57,357 nt of DNA from Treponema sp. Its GTDB lineage: Bacteria > Spirochaetota > Spirochaetia > Treponematales > Breznakiellaceae. The notes beneath the pieces were generated by a model. It saw nothing but the letters and a program-made list of their open reading frames with translations. It was not told the DNA's origin and did not search any database. Every line of letters begins with the position of its first letter. Positions within the stretch are counted from its first letter, which is position 1. The stretch lies in contig JAIRND010000066.1 in the NCBI GenBank assembly GCA_031258225.1, positions 1 to 57,357 on the forward strand, in the 5' to 3' direction. A program made the translations under genes and the position numbers. Positions 3,060 to 57,357 of the stretch are shown here, piece by piece.

Positions 3060-4106
3060 ATGAAAATCTCACGAAAAACTTTTGGAATCCTTTCGGACGG
3101 CAGAAAGGCGCGTCTGTATACCCTTACGGCCGGGGACCTGTGTTTTTCCGTTACCGATCTGGGGGCAACCTGGACCTCGCTTATCGTTCCTTCCCGCCTG
3201 GGCCGGAAGGAGGACGTGATCCTGGGGGCATCCTCCTTTGCCGGTTACGCCGGCGGCCAAAGCGCCCTGGGGATCACCGTGGGCCGTTTCGCCAACCGGA
3301 TCGGCGGGGCCGCGTTTACGCTGGACGGTAAAACGTACCGGTTGGAACAAAACGACGGGCCCAACTCCCTTCACGGGGGACGGCGGGGCTATGACAAGGC
3401 CCTGTGGAAGGCGGATGCGTACAAGGAAAAGGACGGAGTCTTTGTGCGGTTCAAGCTGAAAAGTCCCTCTGGCGATTCGGGCTTTCCCGGCAGCCTCAAC
3501 GTAACGGTAACGTACGGCCTTACCGAAAACAATGAACTTATCGCCTGTTACCGCGCAAGCGCCGATGAGTGGACCCCGGTGAATCTGACCAACCACGCCT
3601 ACTTTAACCTGGCCGGGGAGGGGAAGGGTACGATCCTGAACCACGAACTTACCCTCTGCTCATCATCGTACCTGGAGGTGGACGAGGGGCTTATCCCCAC
3701 CGGCGGCATACTCCCCGTGGACGGCACGCCCTACGATTTCCGTTCCCCCAAGCCCATCGGCAAGGACCTGGAAGCGGCGGTCAAGGGCGGGGCCCCCGGC
3801 GGCTACGATCACTGCTATGTGGTGGACGGGGAAGTCGGCAAACTCAGGCCCTGCGCGGAGATCTTTGAGGGAACCAGCGGCAGGACCCTGAAGGTACTCA
3901 GCACCCAGCCCGGCCTTCAGTTCTACACCGGCAATTTCCTCAAGGCGGTACCGGGAAAGGCCGGCGGGGTCTACAACCGGTACGACGGCTTCTGCCTGGA
4001 AACCCAGCACTTCCCCGATTCCCCCAACAGGCCGGAATTTCCGGACTCGATCTTCGGCCCCGGCAGAAAGTACCGCGAGAAAGCGGTGTTCGCGTTTAGC
4101 TGGTAA
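3060..4106 (+). CDS. galM: galactose mutarotase (aldose 1-epimerase)
   Basis: Family motifs present: VGRFANRI, LHGG, NLTNHAYFNL, YDHCY, FCLETQHFPDSPN. Confidence 0.85.
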   Translation: MKISRKTFGILSDGRKARLYTLTAGDLCFSVTDLGATWTSLIVPSRLGRKEDVILGASSFAGYAGGQSALGITVGRFANRIGGAAFTLDGKTYRLEQNDGPNSLHGGRRGYDKALWKADAYKEKDGVFVRFKLKSPSGDSGFPGSLNVTVTYGLTENNELIACYRASADEWTPVNLTNHAYFNLAGEGKGTILNHELTLCSSSYLEVDEGLIPTGGILPVDGTPYDFRSPKPIGKDLEAAVKGGAPGGYDHCYVVDGEVGKLRPCAEIFEGTSGRTLKVLSTQPGLQFYTGNFLKAVPGKAGGVYNRYDGFCLETQHFPDSPNRPEFPDSIFGPGRKYREKAVFAFSW

Positions 4107-5605: not shown

Positions 5606-6181
5606 GTGGGCGCCTATTATTACCTTGTCGCCCAGCTTCCCAGCCTTGTCTACGGTCAGGAACCGCCCATGAGTTCTGTCCATTTTCTGGATCTCGCGCG
5701 GACACAGTTGAGCGCGGAGGACGCCGCCCTGTTGTCCCTCCTTGAACCGCGGACGGGGGCCGGGCCCCGCGCCGAAGGGCCCTCCGGGTCAGGGTTTATC
5801 GACACATGGCGGGTTTGGGAGCGGGCCCTGCGTTTGAACCTGGCCCGGCTCCGCGCCTCCCGGCTTAAACGGGACGGGGCCGCGCCCGTGGACCCGCCGG
5901 CGGACCCGGCGGACGCGGCGGCCGTTGCCCACGGGGCCCTGGCCGCGGCGGAAAATCCGCTTGAGGCGGAGATCTTTCTGGACAGGGCCCGCTGGAACGC
6001 GATAGAGCGGTTCCAGGGGATACCCGCGTTTAGCCGGGACGCCGTATACGCGTACCTGCTCAAACTCCTCATTTTGGAACGCCGCGCCTCTTTCAAAGCG
6101 GAAACAGGCTTTGCGGAATATAAATCGTTATACGCTTCAATTCTGGAACACGCCCGTCCGGGCGCAGGAGAATCTACATGA
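5606..6181 (+). CDS. DUF2764-family protein (V-ATPase operon accessory, subunit C-like position)
   Basis: GTG start. N-terminal YYYLVAQLPSL resembles the DUF2764 signature. Sits between the E and A genes. Confidence 0.6.
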   Translation: MGAYYYLVAQLPSLVYGQEPPMSSVHFLDLARTQLSAEDAALLSLLEPRTGAGPRAEGPSGSGFIDTWRVWERALRLNLARLRASRLKRDGAAPVDPPADPADAAAVAHGALAAAENPLEAEIFLDRARWNAIERFQGIPAFSRDAVYAYLLKLLILERRASFKAETGFAEYKSLYASILEHARPGAGEST

Positions 6182-12360: not shown

Positions 12361-13494
12361 TTGGCAGACGCGACCCGGACCATAAAAATAGGCGGCTTTG
12401 ACCATGTTAAGGCCGTCTATCTCGGCGGCGGCCGGCCGCCGGTCATCCAGACCATGTGGAAGGACCGCCTCTCCGCCGGGGACCTTGCCGGCGCCCGCGG
12501 GGAGGAGATCGCGGCCCGCGTAGGCCGTCTTGGCGCTATGGGCTGCGGCCTCCTCCGTTTTGCCGTCCCGAACCTGGAGGCCGCCGAAACCCTGGGGGAA
12601 CTGGCCTCCCGTGTCAGTCTTCCCCTGGTGGCGGATATCCACTTCGATTACCGGATTGCCCTCCGCTGCCTTGATTTTCCCATCGCCAAAATACGAATCA
12701 ACCCCGGCACTATCGGCAGACGCGATAAGGTGGAAGCCGTCCTTGCCGGGGCAAAGGAACGGGGCCGGCCCATCCGCGTCGGGGTCAACGCCGGGAGCCT
12801 CCCCCAGGATCTGCGCCTCCTGGTGGAGCGGGGGGAGATGGACCGGAGCGGGGCCCTGGTGGAAGCCGCAGCGCGGGAACTGGAGATCTGCCGGGAATTC
12901 GGTTTTTTTGACTGCCTTGTCTCCATGAAGGCGTCCGGAACTGCCGATACTATACGGGCAAACCGGTTGTTTACCGGCAGGGGATATTCCCTGGACGGCG
13001 GCGCGGTTCCCCTCCACGTGGGCGTAACCGAGGCGGGCCCCCTGGTGGCGGGGGTGGTACGCAATACCGCCGCCCTTTTGGATTTACTGGCCGCCGGTAT
13101 CGGCGACACCATCCGGGTTTCCCTTTCGGACAGCATGGAGAACGAGGTAATCGCCGCCAGGGAGATTTTGGGCCTGCTTCCCGGGGGCCGTGGCGGAATA
13201 CCCGGCGTAACCATCGTGTCCTGCCCCCGCTGCGGCAGGAACAGCTTCGACACCCACGGTTTTACCGCTCGCTGGCTGTCCCGCCTGTACAGCCTGCCCA
13301 AACACGCCACCGTGGCCATCATGGGCTGTGTGGTGAACGGCCCCGGGGAGGCGCGGCAGGCGGATTTGGGGATCACCGGAGCGGGGGACAAGGTTTTGCT
13401 GTTCCGGCACGGCGCCGTTATCCGGACTGTCCTGGCGGACGAGGCGGACGAGGTTTTTCGTGAGGAACTGGAAAAACTTGAGGGGATGTCCTAA
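12361..13494 (+). CDS. ispG: 4-hydroxy-3-methylbut-2-en-1-yl diphosphate synthase
   Basis: Motifs VADIHFDY, IRINPGT, VGVNAGSL, SCPRCGR, GCVVNGPGE. TTG start as in the ORF track. Confidence 0.93.
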   Translation: MADATRTIKIGGFDHVKAVYLGGGRPPVIQTMWKDRLSAGDLAGARGEEIAARVGRLGAMGCGLLRFAVPNLEAAETLGELASRVSLPLVADIHFDYRIALRCLDFPIAKIRINPGTIGRRDKVEAVLAGAKERGRPIRVGVNAGSLPQDLRLLVERGEMDRSGALVEAAARELEICREFGFFDCLVSMKASGTADTIRANRLFTGRGYSLDGGAVPLHVGVTEAGPLVAGVVRNTAALLDLLAAGIGDTIRVSLSDSMENEVIAAREILGLLPGGRGGIPGVTIVSCPRCGRNSFDTHGFTARWLSRLYSLPKHATVAIMGCVVNGPGEARQADLGITGAGDKVLLFRHGAVIRTVLADEADEVFREELEKLEGMS

Positions 13495-13503
13495 TCTTGT
13501 ACA

Positions 13504-13670
13504 CTAGGAGCCTGTGGGACTTGTGGATTTTTGCGGCCTTTGACCGCAAAAATCTCCGATTTTCGGGCTCCTTTGGGAGTCTGCAAGGTAGAAAACGCGC
13601 AATTTTGCGCATTTTCTTTATCATTTGGGCTAAAGCCCCACAGACTCCTGGGGGGCCGGCTGTATGCCGT
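13504..13670 (+). repeat. complete unit of the mosaic hairpin-rich intergenic repeat (candidate ncRNA, REP/BIME-like or MITE-like element)
   Basis: Left arm 13504-13518 is complementary to 13637-13651. Hairpins at 13525-13555, 13591-13616 and 13627-13638. Core 13565-13590 is 23/26 identical to 57304-57329. Left 31 nt (13504-13534) are 26/31 identical to 57242-57272. Confidence 0.85.
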
Positions 13671-13728
13671 GTCTCAAAATTTTTATGGGGACCGTCCAGG
13701 GGTTAAGCGGTCCCGCAAGGGGTTATGA

Positions 13729-14226
13729 ATGAAGAAGAAATTATTGTTGGTCTGTGTGGTCGGACTTTTGGCCGCCAACGTTTTCGCGGACCATCCCGGC
13801 GGCAAGCTGGGTGTGGGTGTCTTTGGCGGCGGCGGTAGTTCCACCGCCGCCGGGGGCCGCGGCAGTCTCGGCCTCAGCCTCAAACTGTCCGGTTTGCCGC
13901 TCTTTTGGGGCGTTACGGCGTACTTTGGCGATCCATTTTTGATGAATGTTTCGGCGGACTACTACCTTATCGACGACGACCTGGTAAAGGACGGCTCGTT
14001 CAACCTGGACTGGTTTTTTGGCATAGGCGGCTTCGGTCGTTTTTATATCAGCAGCAATGACTTTGCCGTCGACTTGGGGCTCCGGTTGCCCATAGGTCTG
14101 TCCTGGCATATCATCAACAATGTGGAACTGTTCGCGGACGTGGTACCGGGTCTGGGGATTAGCCTGCAGGGCAATCCCCTGGATTGGACCTGGGGAGGTG
14201 AATTGGGGCTCCGGCTCTGGCTCTAG
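13729..14226 (+). CDS. small secreted protein, probable outer-membrane beta-barrel
   Basis: Signal peptide MKKKLLLVCVVGLLAANVFA. Gly-rich with alternating amphipathic strands. C-terminus ends ELGLRLWL. Confidence 0.55.
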   Translation: MKKKLLLVCVVGLLAANVFADHPGGKLGVGVFGGGGSSTAAGGRGSLGLSLKLSGLPLFWGVTAYFGDPFLMNVSADYYLIDDDLVKDGSFNLDWFFGIGGFGRFYISSNDFAVDLGLRLPIGLSWHIINNVELFADVVPGLGISLQGNPLDWTWGGELGLRLWL

Positions 14227-35980: not shown

Positions 35981-36922
35981 GTGGCGGGTACCGCGCTGTA
36001 CGATCAGTTTTACTCACGGCTCATTGCCCAGGAGCGCCGTTCCCCGCTGACGGCGGAGACGTACCGGACGGAGGCGCGGCGTTTCCTGGACTGGCTTGAC
36101 GCGGAGGGGCTGCAGCCGGCCTCGGTGGATTCTTCCGGTCTGTCCAGGTATCTGGACAGCCGCCGGAAGATAGACCGGATTGATTCCCGGTCCACCGCCA
36201 AGGCGATTTCCGCGCTTAGATCTTTTTTTCGTTTTACGATTGATGAATCGATCAGGGGCGATAATCCGGCCGCTGTTCTGGAAATGCCCCGGCAGCCGCT
36301 TCGCCTGCCGGAGGTGCTTTCCCGGGAAACGGTGGAACGTCTTCTCAACGCGGTAAACAGCGAGACCCCCCTGGGGCTGCGGGACCGGACGATCTTTGAG
36401 CTTATCTATTCGGCGGGTCTCAGGGTTTCCGAGGCGGTGTCTCTGGACCTGCGGGACCTTGAACTGCCCGATCCCGCCTCCGGTACCGCGGAGGGCGGCG
36501 GAATTGCCCGTGTAAAGGGCAAGGGGAACAAGGAGCGCCTGGTGGTTTTTGGGGATATTGCCGCCTTTTGGCTGCGCCGCTATCTAAAAGAATCCCGGCC
36601 GGGACTCGTGAAACATCGCCACAGCCGGGCCCTGTTTGTCGGCCGTTCCGGAAAACGTCTTTCCCGAAAGGGTATATGGAGGAACTATGCCCGCTTTACG
36701 TCTTTGGCGGGGACCAGTTCTCATCTCCACGCGCTTCGGCACAGTTTTGCTACGGAGTTACTTTCCGGCGGGGCGGATCTCCGTTCCGTACAGGCCCTGC
36801 TGGGGCACAGCGATCTGGCGACCACCCAGATCTACACCCATGTGGATGTTTCCCTGCTCCGGGAAAGCCACCGGAAATTCCTGCCCAGGCTGGGAAACGG
36901 GGCGCGGGAGTCCAAGGCGTGA
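35981..36922 (+). CDS. xerD: tyrosine site-specific recombinase XerD
   Basis: LRHSFATELL, LLGHSDLATTQIYTHV. GTG start. Confidence 0.8.
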   Translation: MAGTALYDQFYSRLIAQERRSPLTAETYRTEARRFLDWLDAEGLQPASVDSSGLSRYLDSRRKIDRIDSRSTAKAISALRSFFRFTIDESIRGDNPAAVLEMPRQPLRLPEVLSRETVERLLNAVNSETPLGLRDRTIFELIYSAGLRVSEAVSLDLRDLELPDPASGTAEGGGIARVKGKGNKERLVVFGDIAAFWLRRYLKESRPGLVKHRHSRALFVGRSGKRLSRKGIWRNYARFTSLAGTSSHLHALRHSFATELLSGGADLRSVQALLGHSDLATTQIYTHVDVSLLRESHRKFLPRLGNGARESKA

Positions 36923-37668: not shown

Positions 37669-38612
37669 TGGACCGCGGTTTGCTTGATCTGATGATAATC
37701 CGCATCCCGGCCATAAAGCCGGTGGAACGGGCGGAACTTTGCAAAAAACTCCGGGGGGAAGATGACCTGGTCCGCATGTCCGGTTCCGATCTGGAAACCC
37801 TGCTGGGCCGTCCGCTAAAGCGGCATGCCGGTATGGATACGATCCGTTTTGCCGCGGAACAGGATGCCGCGAACGCGCTAAAACGGGGCATCCGTTGGGT
37901 GTCCCTGGTATCCGCCTCCTATCCGCCGCTGCTCCGGGAGATCTACGATCCGCCGGTCCTGCTGTTTTACCGGGGCGCCCTGCCCGACGCGGACAGGCCG
38001 GCGGCGGCCGTTGTGGGAACCCGGAAGCCCGGGGGGGCTGCCCTTAAAGCGGCCTTTGATATAGGCCGTGGTCTTGGGCTTCAGGGTATTTCCGTTGTTT
38101 CGGGCCTTGCCCTGGGCATCGACGCCACGGCCCACCGGGGGAACCTTGAGGGAGGGGGCAGGACCTACGCGGTCCTGGGTTCCGGGGTGGATGAGATATA
38201 CCCCTCCTCCAACCGCCCGCTGGCGCGGAGGATTCTGGAGGGCGGCGGGGGCATTCTTTCGGAGTATCCCCCCGGCACGGAACCCCAGAAGTGGCATTTC
38301 CCCGCCCGGAACCGGATCATCTCCGCTATGGTCCGGGGGACTCTGATTGTGGAGGCCCCCGCCGCGTCGGGGGCGCTGATAACCGCCCGCTTTGCCCTGG
38401 AACACGGCCGGGATCTGTGGGTTTCATCGGCGGGCCTGGGGGCCGCGGGGACCGCCCGTTTGGCGGGGGAGGGGGCTAAAATCATCGCTTCCGCTTCTGA
38501 TATAGTACGTGAATGGGCCATCGCGGAACAGGCGGAACAAGTGGAAGACCGGGGCGCTTCCATCGGCAGAACCCTTGCCGATTCCCTGGCCCGGCGCCTG
38601 GCGATACGGTGA
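37665..38612 (+). CDS. dprA: DNA-processing protein DprA (Smf)
   Basis: GLALGIDATAHRG, AVLGSGVDEIYP, FPARNRIISA, GALITARFALEHGRD. Confidence 0.9.
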   Translation: MMDRGLLDLMIIRIPAIKPVERAELCKKLRGEDDLVRMSGSDLETLLGRPLKRHAGMDTIRFAAEQDAANALKRGIRWVSLVSASYPPLLREIYDPPVLLFYRGALPDADRPAAAVVGTRKPGGAALKAAFDIGRGLGLQGISVVSGLALGIDATAHRGNLEGGGRTYAVLGSGVDEIYPSSNRPLARRILEGGGGILSEYPPGTEPQKWHFPARNRIISAMVRGTLIVEAPAASGALITARFALEHGRDLWVSSAGLGAAGTARLAGEGAKIIASASDIVREWAIAEQAEQVEDRGASIGRTLADSLARRLAIR

Positions 38613-38646
38613 GGTTCCGCGCGCGGCGGTTTGTAAGGAAAAACGA

Positions 38647-38721
38647 ATGACTGTGAAGGCAATGACTGTGAAGGCAATGACTGTAAAGGCAATGACTGTG
38701 AAGGCAATGACTGTGAAGGCA
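38647..38721 (+). repeat. 5 x 15-bp perfect-register tandem repeat (ATGACTGTGAAGGCA), each unit starting with an in-frame ATG
   Basis: Units at 38647, 38662, 38677 (one synonymous G to A), 38692 and 38707. They encode (MTVKA)x5 at the topA N-terminus. Confidence 0.95.
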
Positions 38722-40917
38722 GAGAATAGCGATAAAGCTGAAAACTCCAAGCCCAAGGCGGTACGGCGCGGTGTCCGTAAGAAGCCCGGCAAAAAGCCGG
38801 AGAAAAAGACCCTTATCATCATGGAATCCCCCCACAAGGCGGAAACCGTTCAGAAGATACTGGGTTCAGACTACACCGTAAAGGCCTGTATCGGCCATTT
38901 AATCGATTTACCCAAGTCCCGGCTTGCCATTGACGTGGATCACAACTTTGAGCCTGAGTATATCACCGTCCGGGGACGTTCAAAACTTTTGAAGGAACTG
39001 CAGGGGGACGCGAAAAAATCCGGCATGGTTCTCCTGGCCAGCGACCCGGACCGGGAGGGGGAGGCCATTGCCTGGCACCTTAAAAACGCCATTGCCGCGA
39101 AGACCGACAAGGTTCCGGTCCGGCGGATCAGCATCAACGAGATTACCCCCCAGGTTGTCCGGGACGCGGTAATAAAACCCCAGGATATTAACGAGGACCT
39201 TGTAAACGCCCAAAAAGCCCGGCGGGTGCTGGATCGCCTGGTGGGGTACAACCTTTCACCGCTGTTGTGGAAAAAAGTGAAAAACGGCCTGTCTGCGGGA
39301 CGGGTACAGTCCGTGGCCCTGCGGATAATCTGCGAACGGGAGAAGGAGGTGGAATCCTTTATCCCGGAAGAGTACTGGACTCTGGACGCGGACTTCAGGC
39401 TTGGGCGTTCCGCGTTTACCGCCCAACTGGTCAGTTGGCGGGGGGCCAAGCCGGAATTGAAAACTGAAGAAGCGGTCAATAAGATCATCGCCGAGATTAA
39501 ACATGCCGATTGTGTGGTCGGGGAAATCCGGGAGACCGACAGGATCGTGCGGCCCCGGGCCCCGTTTACCACCAGCCAGATGCAGCAGACCGCGGCCAAC
39601 CGTCTGGGCTTTACGGCCCGTAAGACGATGCAGGTGGCCCAGCAGTTGTACGAGGGGATCAACATCGGCGCCTCCCGGGTGGGGCTTATCACCTACATGC
39701 GTACTGACTCGGTGCGCGTATCCCAAACCGCCCTGGCGGAGCTGCGGGACTGGCTGGGTAAAAACTACCCCGGCGACTTTCCCGAAACGCCGAACGAATA
39801 CTCGGTGGGGAAAAAGGCCCAGGACGCCCACGAGGCGATCCGGCCCACGTTTGTGGACTACACCCCCGACTCGGTAAAGGAGTACCTTAGCCGGGATCAA
39901 CTGCGGCTCTATACGATTATCTGGGAACGGTTTGTTTCCAGCCAGATGAACAACGCCAAAAACCGGTCCCTGAGCGCCGATATTGCCGCGGGGGAGGCCC
40001 TGTTCAGGATCACGGGGACCAAACTTATCGAGCGGGGATTCTACAAGGTTATCAAGCTGCTCTCCGGCAAGGAGGAACAGGGTAATCCCTACCCCTCCCT
40101 TAAAACCGGGGACACGGTAAAGATGGACAAGTTCTACCCCGACCAGCATTTTACCCAGGGGCCGCCCCGCTATACCGACGCGTCCATCGTGCGGGTTCTG
40201 GAGGAAAAAGGCATAGGCCGGCCCTCCACCTACGCGCCGATTATTTCGGTGCTTCTGGACCGTTACTACGTAACACGTTCCAATAAACAACTGGTTCCCA
40301 CGGTTTTGGGCAGACTGATAAATGACATGCTGGTGGAGTATTTTCCCCACTATGTTGACGCCGCCTTTACCGCCGACATGGAAAACAAACTTGACAAGGT
40401 GGAAGATAACGCCATTCAGTGGCCGGACATGATCCGGGAATTCTGGGACCCCTTTAAGGACCGCCTGGACAATGTGGGAAAGACCCTGGAATCCTACAAG
40501 GGATCGCTGGACGAGCCCACCGATTATGTCTGCGAAAAATGCGGCAAGCCCATGCTGAAAAAGCTGGGCCGCTTTGGGTTCTTCCTTGCCTGTTCCGGTT
40601 TTCCTGAGTGCAGGAATACTAAATCCATACCGCTGGCAACGTGTCCCAAGTGCGGGGGCGACGTTGTGGCCCGGAAGAACCGGGGCCGGGGCAGGGAATT
40701 CTACGGCTGCGTGAATTATCCGGCCTGCGATTTTATCAGCCACTACAAACCCATCAACCAGAATTGCCCCAAATGCGGTCAGTTCCTGGTGGAAAAGTAC
40801 GACAAAAAGAACGGGTACCATAAGGCGTGTATCAACCCGGATTGTGATTACCTTCATAGTGAGGAAGATGAGGTGGAGGGCCCCGGGCCGGGGGAAGGCG
40901 GTGAACATGAAGAATAA
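38647..40917 (+). CDS. topA: DNA topoisomerase I
   Basis: Toprim LIIMESPHKAETV, ASDPDREGEAIAWH, active-site region GLITYMRTDS, and C-terminal Cys4 zinc ribbons. Start placed at the first repeat ATG (AAGGA at 38635-38639). ORF-track start 38509 overlaps dprA and is rejected. Confidence 0.93.
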   Translation: MTVKAMTVKAMTVKAMTVKAMTVKAENSDKAENSKPKAVRRGVRKKPGKKPEKKTLIIMESPHKAETVQKILGSDYTVKACIGHLIDLPKSRLAIDVDHNFEPEYITVRGRSKLLKELQGDAKKSGMVLLASDPDREGEAIAWHLKNAIAAKTDKVPVRRISINEITPQVVRDAVIKPQDINEDLVNAQKARRVLDRLVGYNLSPLLWKKVKNGLSAGRVQSVALRIICEREKEVESFIPEEYWTLDADFRLGRSAFTAQLVSWRGAKPELKTEEAVNKIIAEIKHADCVVGEIRETDRIVRPRAPFTTSQMQQTAANRLGFTARKTMQVAQQLYEGINIGASRVGLITYMRTDSVRVSQTALAELRDWLGKNYPGDFPETPNEYSVGKKAQDAHEAIRPTFVDYTPDSVKEYLSRDQLRLYTIIWERFVSSQMNNAKNRSLSADIAAGEALFRITGTKLIERGFYKVIKLLSGKEEQGNPYPSLKTGDTVKMDKFYPDQHFTQGPPRYTDASIVRVLEEKGIGRPSTYAPIISVLLDRYYVTRSNKQLVPTVLGRLINDMLVEYFPHYVDAAFTADMENKLDKVEDNAIQWPDMIREFWDPFKDRLDNVGKTLESYKGSLDEPTDYVCEKCGKPMLKKLGRFGFFLACSGFPECRNTKSIPLATCPKCGGDVVARKNRGRGREFYGCVNYPACDFISHYKPINQNCPKCGQFLVEKYDKKNGYHKACINPDCDYLHSEEDEVEGPGPGEGGEHEE

Positions 40918-41848
40918 AGCGGCGGGGGGTACGGATTTTCCCGTTGCGGAAGACTGTCCCGCCGTAATGCGGGAGTACCTTTCCTATTTGAAGGCGGTGC
41001 GGGGGGTTTCCGACAGGACCATTGAAGCCTATGGGAAGGACCTTTCCCATTTTGCCGCCTATTGCCTCAACTTCGCGCTGGATCCGGAAAAACTGGATAC
41101 CAAGGAACTGCGGGGCTTTATCGCCGATCAGAGCGCGGAAGGGGCCGCCGCGGTAAGCGTGAACCGGGCCCTGTCTTCCATCCGGGGATTTTACCGCTGG
41201 ATGGTCCGCTTTGGCCGCCGGCAGAATAACCCCTGCGATACCCTGCGGAACCTCAAGAGCCCCCGGAACCTGCCCAGCTTTCTCTGGGAACCGGAAATGG
41301 CCCGTTTCGCCGTACTGCCGGAAACCGCGGGGATCCTGTGGCCCTCCCGGGACAAGGCCCTGATCCTGACCATGTATTCGGCGGGGCTGCGTATTTCCGA
41401 ACTGGTCTCCCTTTCCCTTTCCAAACTTGAACCCGATTTTGGGGGCGCCCGCGTTATCGGCAAGGGGAACAAAGAGCGGTTTGTGTTCTTTTCCGACGAG
41501 GCGCGGGAGGCGCTGTCAATCTACCTGCCGGAACGGGAAAATCGAATCAAGGCGGACGGGAAACAGCCTGTGGACCGGGTCTTTGTCAACCGTAACGGCG
41601 GGGCAATCTCGGTTCCCGGCGTGCGGTGGATCATCGCCAGATACGCGGAGCGTTCCGGTTTGGGAAAGCGTATCCATCCGCATAGCCTGCGCCACAGTTT
41701 TGCCACCCATTTGGTCAATTCAGGCTGCGATGTACGGGTGGTACAGGAACTGCTGGGCCATGCCAGTCTTTCCACGACCCAGCGTTACACCCATGTGGAT
41801 ATTGAGCGGCTCAAGAAGGTCTACGCAAAGGCGCATCCTCATGGCTAG
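40907..41848 (+). CDS. xerC: tyrosine site-specific recombinase XerC
   Basis: LRHSFATHLV, LLGHASLSTTQRYTHVDIERLKKVYAKAHP. Confidence 0.8.
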   Translation: MKNKAAGGTDFPVAEDCPAVMREYLSYLKAVRGVSDRTIEAYGKDLSHFAAYCLNFALDPEKLDTKELRGFIADQSAEGAAAVSVNRALSSIRGFYRWMVRFGRRQNNPCDTLRNLKSPRNLPSFLWEPEMARFAVLPETAGILWPSRDKALILTMYSAGLRISELVSLSLSKLEPDFGGARVIGKGNKERFVFFSDEAREALSIYLPERENRIKADGKQPVDRVFVNRNGGAISVPGVRWIIARYAERSGLGKRIHPHSLRHSFATHLVNSGCDVRVVQELLGHASLSTTQRYTHVDIERLKKVYAKAHPHG

Positions 41849-57184: not shown

Positions 57185-57357
57185 CCCGTGTTTCGTCAAG
57201 GCGCGCGAAGCGCGATTCTCGGGCTAAAGCCCCACAGACTCCTAGCAGCCTGTTGTACTTGTAGGTTTTTGCTCCACGTTGTGTCGCAAAAACCACGATA
57301 AATGGGCTGCTTTCGGAGTTTGCAAGGTAAAATCGCCTCATAGGTGGTACCTATTCG
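57185..57357 (+). repeat. mosaic hairpin-rich intergenic repeat: 3' part of one unit abutting a second unit that runs off the window
   Basis: CGCGC-GAA-GCGCG at 57202-57214. GGGC-TAAA-GCCC at 57221-57232. Right arm CCCACAGACTCCTAG (57231-57245) is contiguous with left arm CTAGCAGCCTGTTGT (57242-57256). Hairpin GGTTTTTGC (57264-57272)/GCAAAAACC (57286-57294). Core at 57304-57329. Confidence 0.85.

Follow-up and report, generated by a model that had tools for sequence, protein, structure and literature searches.

A MITE family with CTAG-type target sites in the ispG spacer of a termite-gut-type Treponema

The spacer downstream of ispG and its empty site

We analysed a stretch of 57,357 nucleotides of a Treponema sp. 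contig (hereafter, the window) and focused on the spacer that follows ispG. By its IspG homologues, the window belongs among termite-gut-type Treponema: the nearest ones are 89%, 86%, and 82% identical, and those of T. primitia and Leadbettera azotonutricia are 66–71% identical. The contigs with the closest IspG share the gene order of the window, which is ATP-synt_C, ispG, a protein of 162–167 aa, and a TPR protein. The features of the locus are the following:

12361–13494, + strand: ispG (PF04551/PF26540; homologues named IspG)
13504–13507: left target-site duplication, CTAG; direct 4-bp flanks are seen family-wide
13508–13647, + strand: body of the element, read here as a full-length subfamily-A MITE, 140 bp, non-coding
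13508–13520: left terminal inverted repeat, GAGCCTGTGGGAC; 11/13 positions paired with the reverse complement of 13635–13647
13525–13555, + strand: hairpin H1, GGATTTTTGCGG / CCGCAAAAATCT, seen in folds
13565–13590, + strand: conserved core, GGGCTCCTTTGGGAGTCTGCAAGGTA, common to subfamilies A, B, and C
13591–13626, + strand: hairpin H2, GAAAACGCGC / GCGCATTTTC, with a T-rich tail; intrinsic-terminator-like
13627–13647: sub-terminal mini-hairpin GGGC-TAAA-GCCC (13627–13638) and the overlapping right terminal inverted repeat, GCCCCACAGACTC
13648–13651: right target-site duplication, CTGG, with one mismatch to the left copy
13729–14226, + strand: downstream gene; its 165-aa product has an N-terminus resembling a signal peptide and matches DUF3996 below threshold

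The left duplication lies 9 nt after the ispG stop codon. The terminal inverted repeats are imperfect, span 13 bp, and correspond to the closing helix described in a sequence-only reading of this DNA. When the flanks are included, 13504–13518 (CTAGGAGCCTGTGGG) pairs with 13637–13651 (CCCACAGACTCCTGG) at 14/15 positions, with 13 Watson-Crick pairs, one G:U, and one C.A mismatch. That reading had also described H1 (arms 13525–13536 and 13544–13555), the core, H2 (13591–13616), and the mini-hairpin; we found them all where it had placed them, and both H1 and H2 are present in the MFE fold. The extent that it gave to the unit, 13504–13670, needs trimming on the right: the element proper is 13508–13647 plus the 4-bp flanks 13504–13507 and 13648–13651, whereas 13652–13670 is ordinary spacer that is conserved in relatives without the element. 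Its coding capacity is nil, since it is crossed only by mechanical ORFs, which have no counterpart in relatives without the element.

Relatives with the same gene order provide the unoccupied state of the locus. The spacer between ispG and the next gene measures 93 nt in L073 and 95 nt in L074 (IspG 89% and 86% identical to that of the window, respectively) versus 234 nt in the window, and alignment with both leaves a single clean gap of 144 nt, that is, 140 plus one duplication. At the junction, L074 reads TTGTACA-CTAT-GGGAGC and the window reads TTGTACA-CTAG-(element)-CTGG-GGGGCC. Elsewhere, the spacer is conserved in the relatives, including a hairpin before the ribosome-binding site of the next gene. 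This empty site in L073 and L074 is direct evidence that the window element is an insertion.

A third relative, L075, carries a different and truncated family member (GAGCCTGTTGCACTTGCAGGTTTTTACGG...) at the same point, with CCGG on both sides. Thus, the site downstream of ispG is a recurrent target. L075 is the JGI contig of the 82%-IspG relative and has three members around ispG (2262–2328, 3495–3545, and 5993–6061); a B-type copy lies upstream of ispG, where the spacer has grown from about 20 nt to 185 nt. The downstream 165-aa gene is syntenic in L073, L074, and L075; its DUF3996 match is too weak to establish the OMP identity given to it in the sequence-only reading. The hairpin that precedes it (GGGGACCG...CGGTCCC, at 13688–13717, just 5′ of its ribosome-binding site) is conserved in these three contigs with differing stem sequences, and may be the native ispG terminator or a 5′-UTR structure, independent of the MITE.

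Other repeats were observed elsewhere in the window. A 15-nt unit, AATGACTGTGAAGGC, is arrayed in tandem in about 5–6 copies at 38646–38736, within the long ORF 38509–40917. The segments 36506–36859 and 41447–41812 are 72–78% identical and about 4.9 kb apart; they belong to ORFs 35981–36922 and 40844–41848, which are probably paralogous genes. Besides, GC-rich imperfect tandem or direct repeats with units of about 30–55 nt occupy 2574–2742, inside ORF 2293–2835.

Dispersed copies, target-site duplications, and nested derivatives

We scanned a genome collection with the exact 20-mer GCTAAAGCCCCACAGACTCC, taken from the right end of the element, and retrieved 76 exact matches at 72 loci. Public Treponema MAGs therefore hold at least 76 sites with this right end. 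One MAG, Treponema sp. Cd354_bin93, accounts for 67 of the 72 loci, and the remaining five belong to four other MAGs from the same sample. Copies bounded by both terminal inverted repeats (GAGCCTGTGGGAC / GAGTCTGTGGGGC) numbered 49; the repeats are nearly invariant among them. They fall into the following size classes:

138–147 bp: 28 copies, 27 of family A and one diverged subfamily-C copy (L033 5393–5532)
107–108 bp: 13 copies without H1, by deletion between two GATTTTTG direct repeats (query positions 31–54 missing)
46–56 bp: 6 "mini" copies, also an internal-deletion class, with little beyond both ends
77 bp and 100 bp: 1 copy each

The 27 family-A copies of 138–147 bp have a mean pairwise identity of 94.8%, and the window copy is 87–96% identical to the 26 others, which come from the Treponema MAG loci. 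When full-length copies are aligned with their flanks, similarity ends abruptly outside C-N-N-G, GAGCC...GACTC, C-N-N-G. The copies lie in unrelated flanking sequence, and nothing but the element is common to the window and those loci.

Beyond these genomes, plasmids, phages, and viral contigs scanned for the element gave no matches. In the metagenome scan (JGI contigs), the exact A left end was absent and a degenerate left end matched twice, once in a degenerate remnant (L077) and once probably by chance (L076). A literature search for the repeat sequence returned only unrelated primers and no description of this MITE family.

Copies occur in both orientations, and most lie outside long open frames or at frame extremities. 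By crude ORF-based gene calls, the contexts are tandem (10 co-oriented and 6 opposite), convergent (5), and divergent (3), and the orientation relative to the upstream gene (10 vs. 6) shows no significant bias. The sequence-only reading had raised the question of further copies co-oriented with their flanking genes: copies are many, but they lie in both orientations. One full-length A copy (L067 1299–1446) sits exactly between tRNA-His, which ends at 1298, and tRNA-Arg, which starts at 1448; within this tRNA cluster it would presumably be co-transcribed and then removed by processing.

Of the 47 testable copies, 21 have 4-bp flanks that are identical direct repeats, when 6.6 were expected by permuting the right flanks; none of 20,000 shuffles reached 21. 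The excess holds for perfect duplications other than CTAG (15 vs. 2.9 expected), which include CTGG, CCAG, CGAG, CGGG, CTTG, CTTA, CTAC, CTCG, and CCGG. Among the non-palindromic cases no flanks matched in the inverted sense, and therefore the flanks are duplications rather than extensions of the inverted repeats. The target consensus is CTAG, in which C is preferred at −5 and G at +5, and its central dinucleotide is variable (TA, TG, CA, GA, GG, TT, TC, and CG). Perfect duplications are found in only 45% of the copies, and in four copies the left flank is CTAG and the right one CTAT. A duplication of 2 bp inside a CTAG target, IS630-like, in which the outermost bases of the element mimic the target, keeps some plausibility. 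Three copies in which the outer positions co-vary on both sides (CTTA/CTTA, CTAC/CTAC, and TTAG/TTGG) favour a length of 4 bp.

The window holds one full copy and partial related copies at both contig edges:

1–87, + strand: right part of a subfamily-B MITE truncated by the contig start, with the core end, H2′, and a CGCGC-GAA-GCGCG mini-hairpin; its right end ...ACAAACTG is at 83 and its flank CTGG at 84–87
57221–57245, + strand: A-type fragment from the right end, GGGCTAAAGCCCCACAGACTC, followed by a CTAG that the adjoining element also uses; 100% identical to 13627–13649
57246–57357, + strand: second partial subfamily-B MITE, of which the left part (CAGCCTGTTGTAC..., H1′, core) precedes the contig end that truncates it; identity of about 75% with the A copy over 95 nt and of 87% with the B copy of L072

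The sequence-only reading had treated these edge copies as members of the same family. They are related to the ispG copy, the core being 23/26 identical between 13565–13590 and 57304–57329, but they belong to subfamily B and reach only about 75% identity over the left 95 nt. Both lie in the same orientation. Positions 1–44 and 57314–57357 are 98% identical. Circularity of a 57-kb replicon was considered and rejected: the ends overlap by just 44 nt, including a mismatch, each of them falls within a known repeat, and the gene content is chromosomal (ispG, a V-ATPase subunit). A B-type CGCGC-GAA-GCGCG mini-hairpin was also seen at 57202–57215, preceding the right-edge A fragment.

Contig ends inside repeats are frequent in the family. 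Within the scan, 28 of the 76 matches lie 150 nt or less from a locus end, with a peak at 94–100 nt, as is typical when a k = 119 assembly breaks within a repeat. The window starts and ends inside repeats for this reason.

Family members also insert into and beside each other. B right halves recur in L017, L030, L035, L041, L067, and L075, and the A-CTAG-B junction of the right edge of the window is found again in L072. Abutting elements that share one tetranucleotide occur in L030, L072, and the window right edge. In L010, an A copy with a CTGG duplication is nested in the core of another subfamily copy, and L008 holds a hybrid that combines the right end of A with the right half of B between perfect CTAG repeats. 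Such clustering, and the "mosaic" look that comes with it, is to be expected because each insertion regenerates the preferred CTAG at both ends.

Foreign sequences interrupt some copies. In L056 (4134–4431), about 300 bp of inserted DNA separate H2 from the right end of an A copy and may be another small mobile element. A further repeat interrupts two A copies at one internal point (after ...GGGAGTCTGCAA; L045 1–70 and L050 1–95, read on the reverse strand) and is also present at L049 ~554; it reads TCGGGTAGGAGGCTGCCC-ATTATTT-GGGCAGCCGTCCTCC-CACACCACC-GTGCGTACCG..., and contigs break within it. Its GTGCG after a hairpin recalls a group II intron 5′ end, although this is only a guess. In three copies (L072 ~975–990, L051, and L060), a C homopolymer that varies in length and reaches about 15 C takes the place of the A-run of the H1 3′ arm; it could be a hypervariable tract or an assembly artefact.

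Folding, hairpin conservation, and competing readings

The element folds well. On the + strand, the 176-nt region reaches −76.1 kcal/mol (z = −5.2), and on the − strand −80.7 kcal/mol (z = −9.5); on either strand, none of 200 dinucleotide shuffles was as good. Subfamilies A, B, and C have one layout in common, which is a closing helix, H1, a small core hairpin, H2 with a T-tract, and a sub-terminal mini-hairpin. The H1 and H2 sequences are unrelated among the subfamilies at these kept positions.

Within family A, the fold is not maintained copy by copy. Among the 27 full copies, substitution rates relative to the consensus are 2.2% in stems and 2.6% in unpaired or loop positions, and many of the stem changes break pairing. 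Individual copies decay neutrally. Compensatory changes are restricted to few lineages: the family consensus of H2, TGCAC/GTGCA, becomes CGCGC/GCGCA in the window (A-T to G-C) and CGCAC/GTGCG in L020, where H1 has changed as well. For 28 copies, RNAalifold gave a covariation term of only −0.45 kcal/mol, and most pairs with both sides changed came from one divergent copy. In subfamily B, nine right halves have 93% of H2 cells paired, against 36–47% in slid controls; one pair covaries, which is not above shuffles, and some B copies, such as that of L075, have a broken H2. The earlier statement that pairing is kept while sequence changes therefore applies between subfamilies and in few lineages, but has no statistical support as covariation within families. 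The layout kept across A, B, and C is not predicted by pure neutrality. The hairpins are a heritable design feature of the element lineages and not evidence for an RNA gene.

In H2, a terminator-consensus match lies at 13597–13610 on the + strand, in the same direction as ispG and about 100 nt past the ispG stop codon, and B and C have an equivalent hairpin with a different sequence but the same A-run, stem, and T-run design at the same position. The terminator module proposed in the sequence-only reading survives in this part, as a possible side-effect: H2 may incidentally terminate or stabilise the ispG transcript at the window locus. A stronger version, compatible with a MITE and adding a function to it, is that the host has co-opted the copy, with H2 serving as a mobile intrinsic terminator or insulator, here for ispG. 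The consensus match, the repeated design, and the high pairing of the B copies speak for it. However, the copies show no significant orientation bias, they decay neutrally, the H2 of some B copies is broken, and the relatives without the element at the ispG locus keep their own conserved hairpin before the next gene. We regard such co-option as unlikely.

A broader proposal concerns the three subfamilies together. A, B, and C might constitute one superfamily of "mobile terminator cassettes", moved by a transposase that cannot be recognised near the copies and that could be of an undescribed type. The suggestion comes from the A-tract/stem/T-tract hairpin and a second long hairpin, both at fixed positions with their sequences wholly replaced. 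If true, it would imply selection for termination or insulation, acting on the propagating lineages or on the host; we give it a low probability.

The sequence-only reading had also considered an ncRNA, and in its fullest form this would be a family of structured ncRNA genes or cis-regulatory RNAs with a selected fold, the repeats being paralogous RNA genes. The very stable fold on both strands, the compensatory changes in H2 of the window and in H1 and H2 of L020, and the hairpin layout kept in A, B, and C would suit it. Nevertheless, the − strand folds better than the + strand, as DNA palindromes do and strand-specific RNAs do not, and copies lie in both orientations and in every gene context. 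The duplications and the empty site show insertion rather than gene duplication, and deletion classes that drop whole hairpins persist in many copies. The equal substitution rates of stems and loops, the small covariation term, and the B-family H2 covariation, which did not exceed shuffles, weigh in the same direction. Rfam, which that reading had proposed searching, returned no family: there were no matches at the gathering threshold over the whole window, and only noise for 13400–13800 at E up to 10 (best 19.8 bits vs. a cutoff of 45). We consider an RNA gene very improbable.

The REP/BIME reading, in which a REP/BIME- or REPIN-type palindrome acting as terminator or mRNA stabiliser is spread by a RAYT (an IS200/IS605-like tyrosine transposase), accounts for an intergenic, palindromic, modular, and multi-copy element with a terminator-like hairpin, but is highly unlikely because REP/REPIN insertions make no target-site duplications, which are significant here, because the terminal inverted repeats enclose a non-palindromic interior with three separate hairpins and not a REP doublet, and because a non-systematic look found no RAYT-like gene beside any copy.

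A MITE and its inferred transposition

We conclude that the segment 13508–13647 of the window is, with high probability, one copy of a MITE, a non-autonomous DNA transposon without coding capacity. This follows from the target-site duplications, the empty site, the dispersed copies, the sharp boundaries, the nested and hybrid copies, and the deletion derivatives. Small size, lack of coding sequence, terminal inverted repeats, duplications, dispersed copies, and an empty site are all features of MITEs, and all were found. The family comprises dozens of dispersed copies, together with deletion, hybrid, and nested derivatives, in related termite-gut-type Treponema genomes. A MITE was one of the options of the sequence-only reading, and it is the one that the insertion evidence bears out. 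That reading had linked this option to target-site duplications and descent from a known IS: the duplications are there, but no known IS parent was identified.

Terminal inverted repeats together with a duplication of fixed length point to a DDE transposase acting in trans. Such an enzyme, encoded elsewhere in the genome, would bind the inverted repeats GAGCCTGTGGG / GAGTCTGTGGG, cut C-N-N-G (preferably CTAG) with a 4-bp stagger, and integrate the element, and repair of the stagger would leave the target-site duplication. CTAG would be recreated at both ends, so that later insertions could land beside or inside earlier copies and produce the mosaic arrays of the window edges. As for the internal hairpins, they probably come from the termini of the parent IS or were kept since they make insertions transcriptionally harmless.

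Our best guess for the partner is an IS5-like transposase, because a 4-bp CTAG-type duplication is the reported IS5 signature. No autonomous IS or transposase with matching ends was found in 464 kb of loci plus the window, nor was a parent IS found on plasmids or phages or in the metagenome and viral scans. Widely spaced inverted-repeat pairs (L057, L049, and L063) enclose only ordinary genes where a parent IS was looked for. With the E. coli IS5 transposase (InsH), tblastn gave only a spurious hit (E = 0.39) antisense to a real gene in L040. MAGs usually drop IS copies, and therefore this absence is weak evidence.

Among known systems, the IS5 family is the closest match in behaviour. IS5 is reported to have 16-bp imperfect inverted repeats and a 4-bp duplication with the consensus C(A/T)A(G/A) (PMC11677980). 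The Treponema element shares with this family the 4-bp direct duplication of CTAG type and short imperfect inverted repeats. However, the central dinucleotide of its target is looser, and no IS5-like transposase or full-length IS with its ends was found in the loci and scans described above. The two are likened by behaviour and not by end sequence, although ends starting with GA/GG are presumably a further likeness.

IS630-type MITEs, such as RUP of Streptococcus pneumoniae, resemble the element in their CTAG-centred target, small size, and inverted repeats. IS630 targets CTAG and duplicates TA. There, TA is required, whereas the Treponema element has 15 identical flank pairs other than CTAG and three copies with co-variation at the outer positions, a better fit to a duplication of 4 bp.

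The Correia elements or NEMIS of Neisseria are non-coding MITEs of 100–155 bp whose terminal inverted repeats form a long closing helix when transcribed. An internal deletion separates their two main size classes, their intergenic copies number in the hundreds, and they affect transcription and mRNA processing. To our knowledge, the transposase that mobilises them long went unidentified. By analogy, the Treponema element has a closing helix formed by its repeats, two size classes by internal deletion, and no transposase found with it. Correia elements have a TA duplication and 26-bp inverted repeats of a sequence that we take to be unrelated, whereas the Treponema element has 4-bp CTAG-like flanks and repeats of about 13 bp.

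REP, BIME, and REPIN sequences likewise form palindromic, modular arrays between genes and may act as terminators or stabilisers. Those of REP type depend on RAYTs and have no duplications, unlike the Treponema element, which has duplications, terminal inverted repeats, and an insertion polymorphism with a precise empty site.

At the level of annotation, the MITE explains the 234-nt ispG spacer, the "mosaic" repeats, and the ends of this contig and of many contigs of related MAGs, and the element should be masked or labelled as a repeat rather than an RNA gene. As a genomic parasite it is of an ordinary kind and opens no new class of system. Spirochaetes, including Treponema, have been reported as MITE-rich (PMC11602168). 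The copies described here document recent activity of a MITE superfamily that targets CTAG-type sites in termite-gut-type Treponema. Its clean filled and empty alleles, together with the recurrently hit site after ispG, could serve as strain markers or in tests of how the MITE hairpins affect neighbouring genes.
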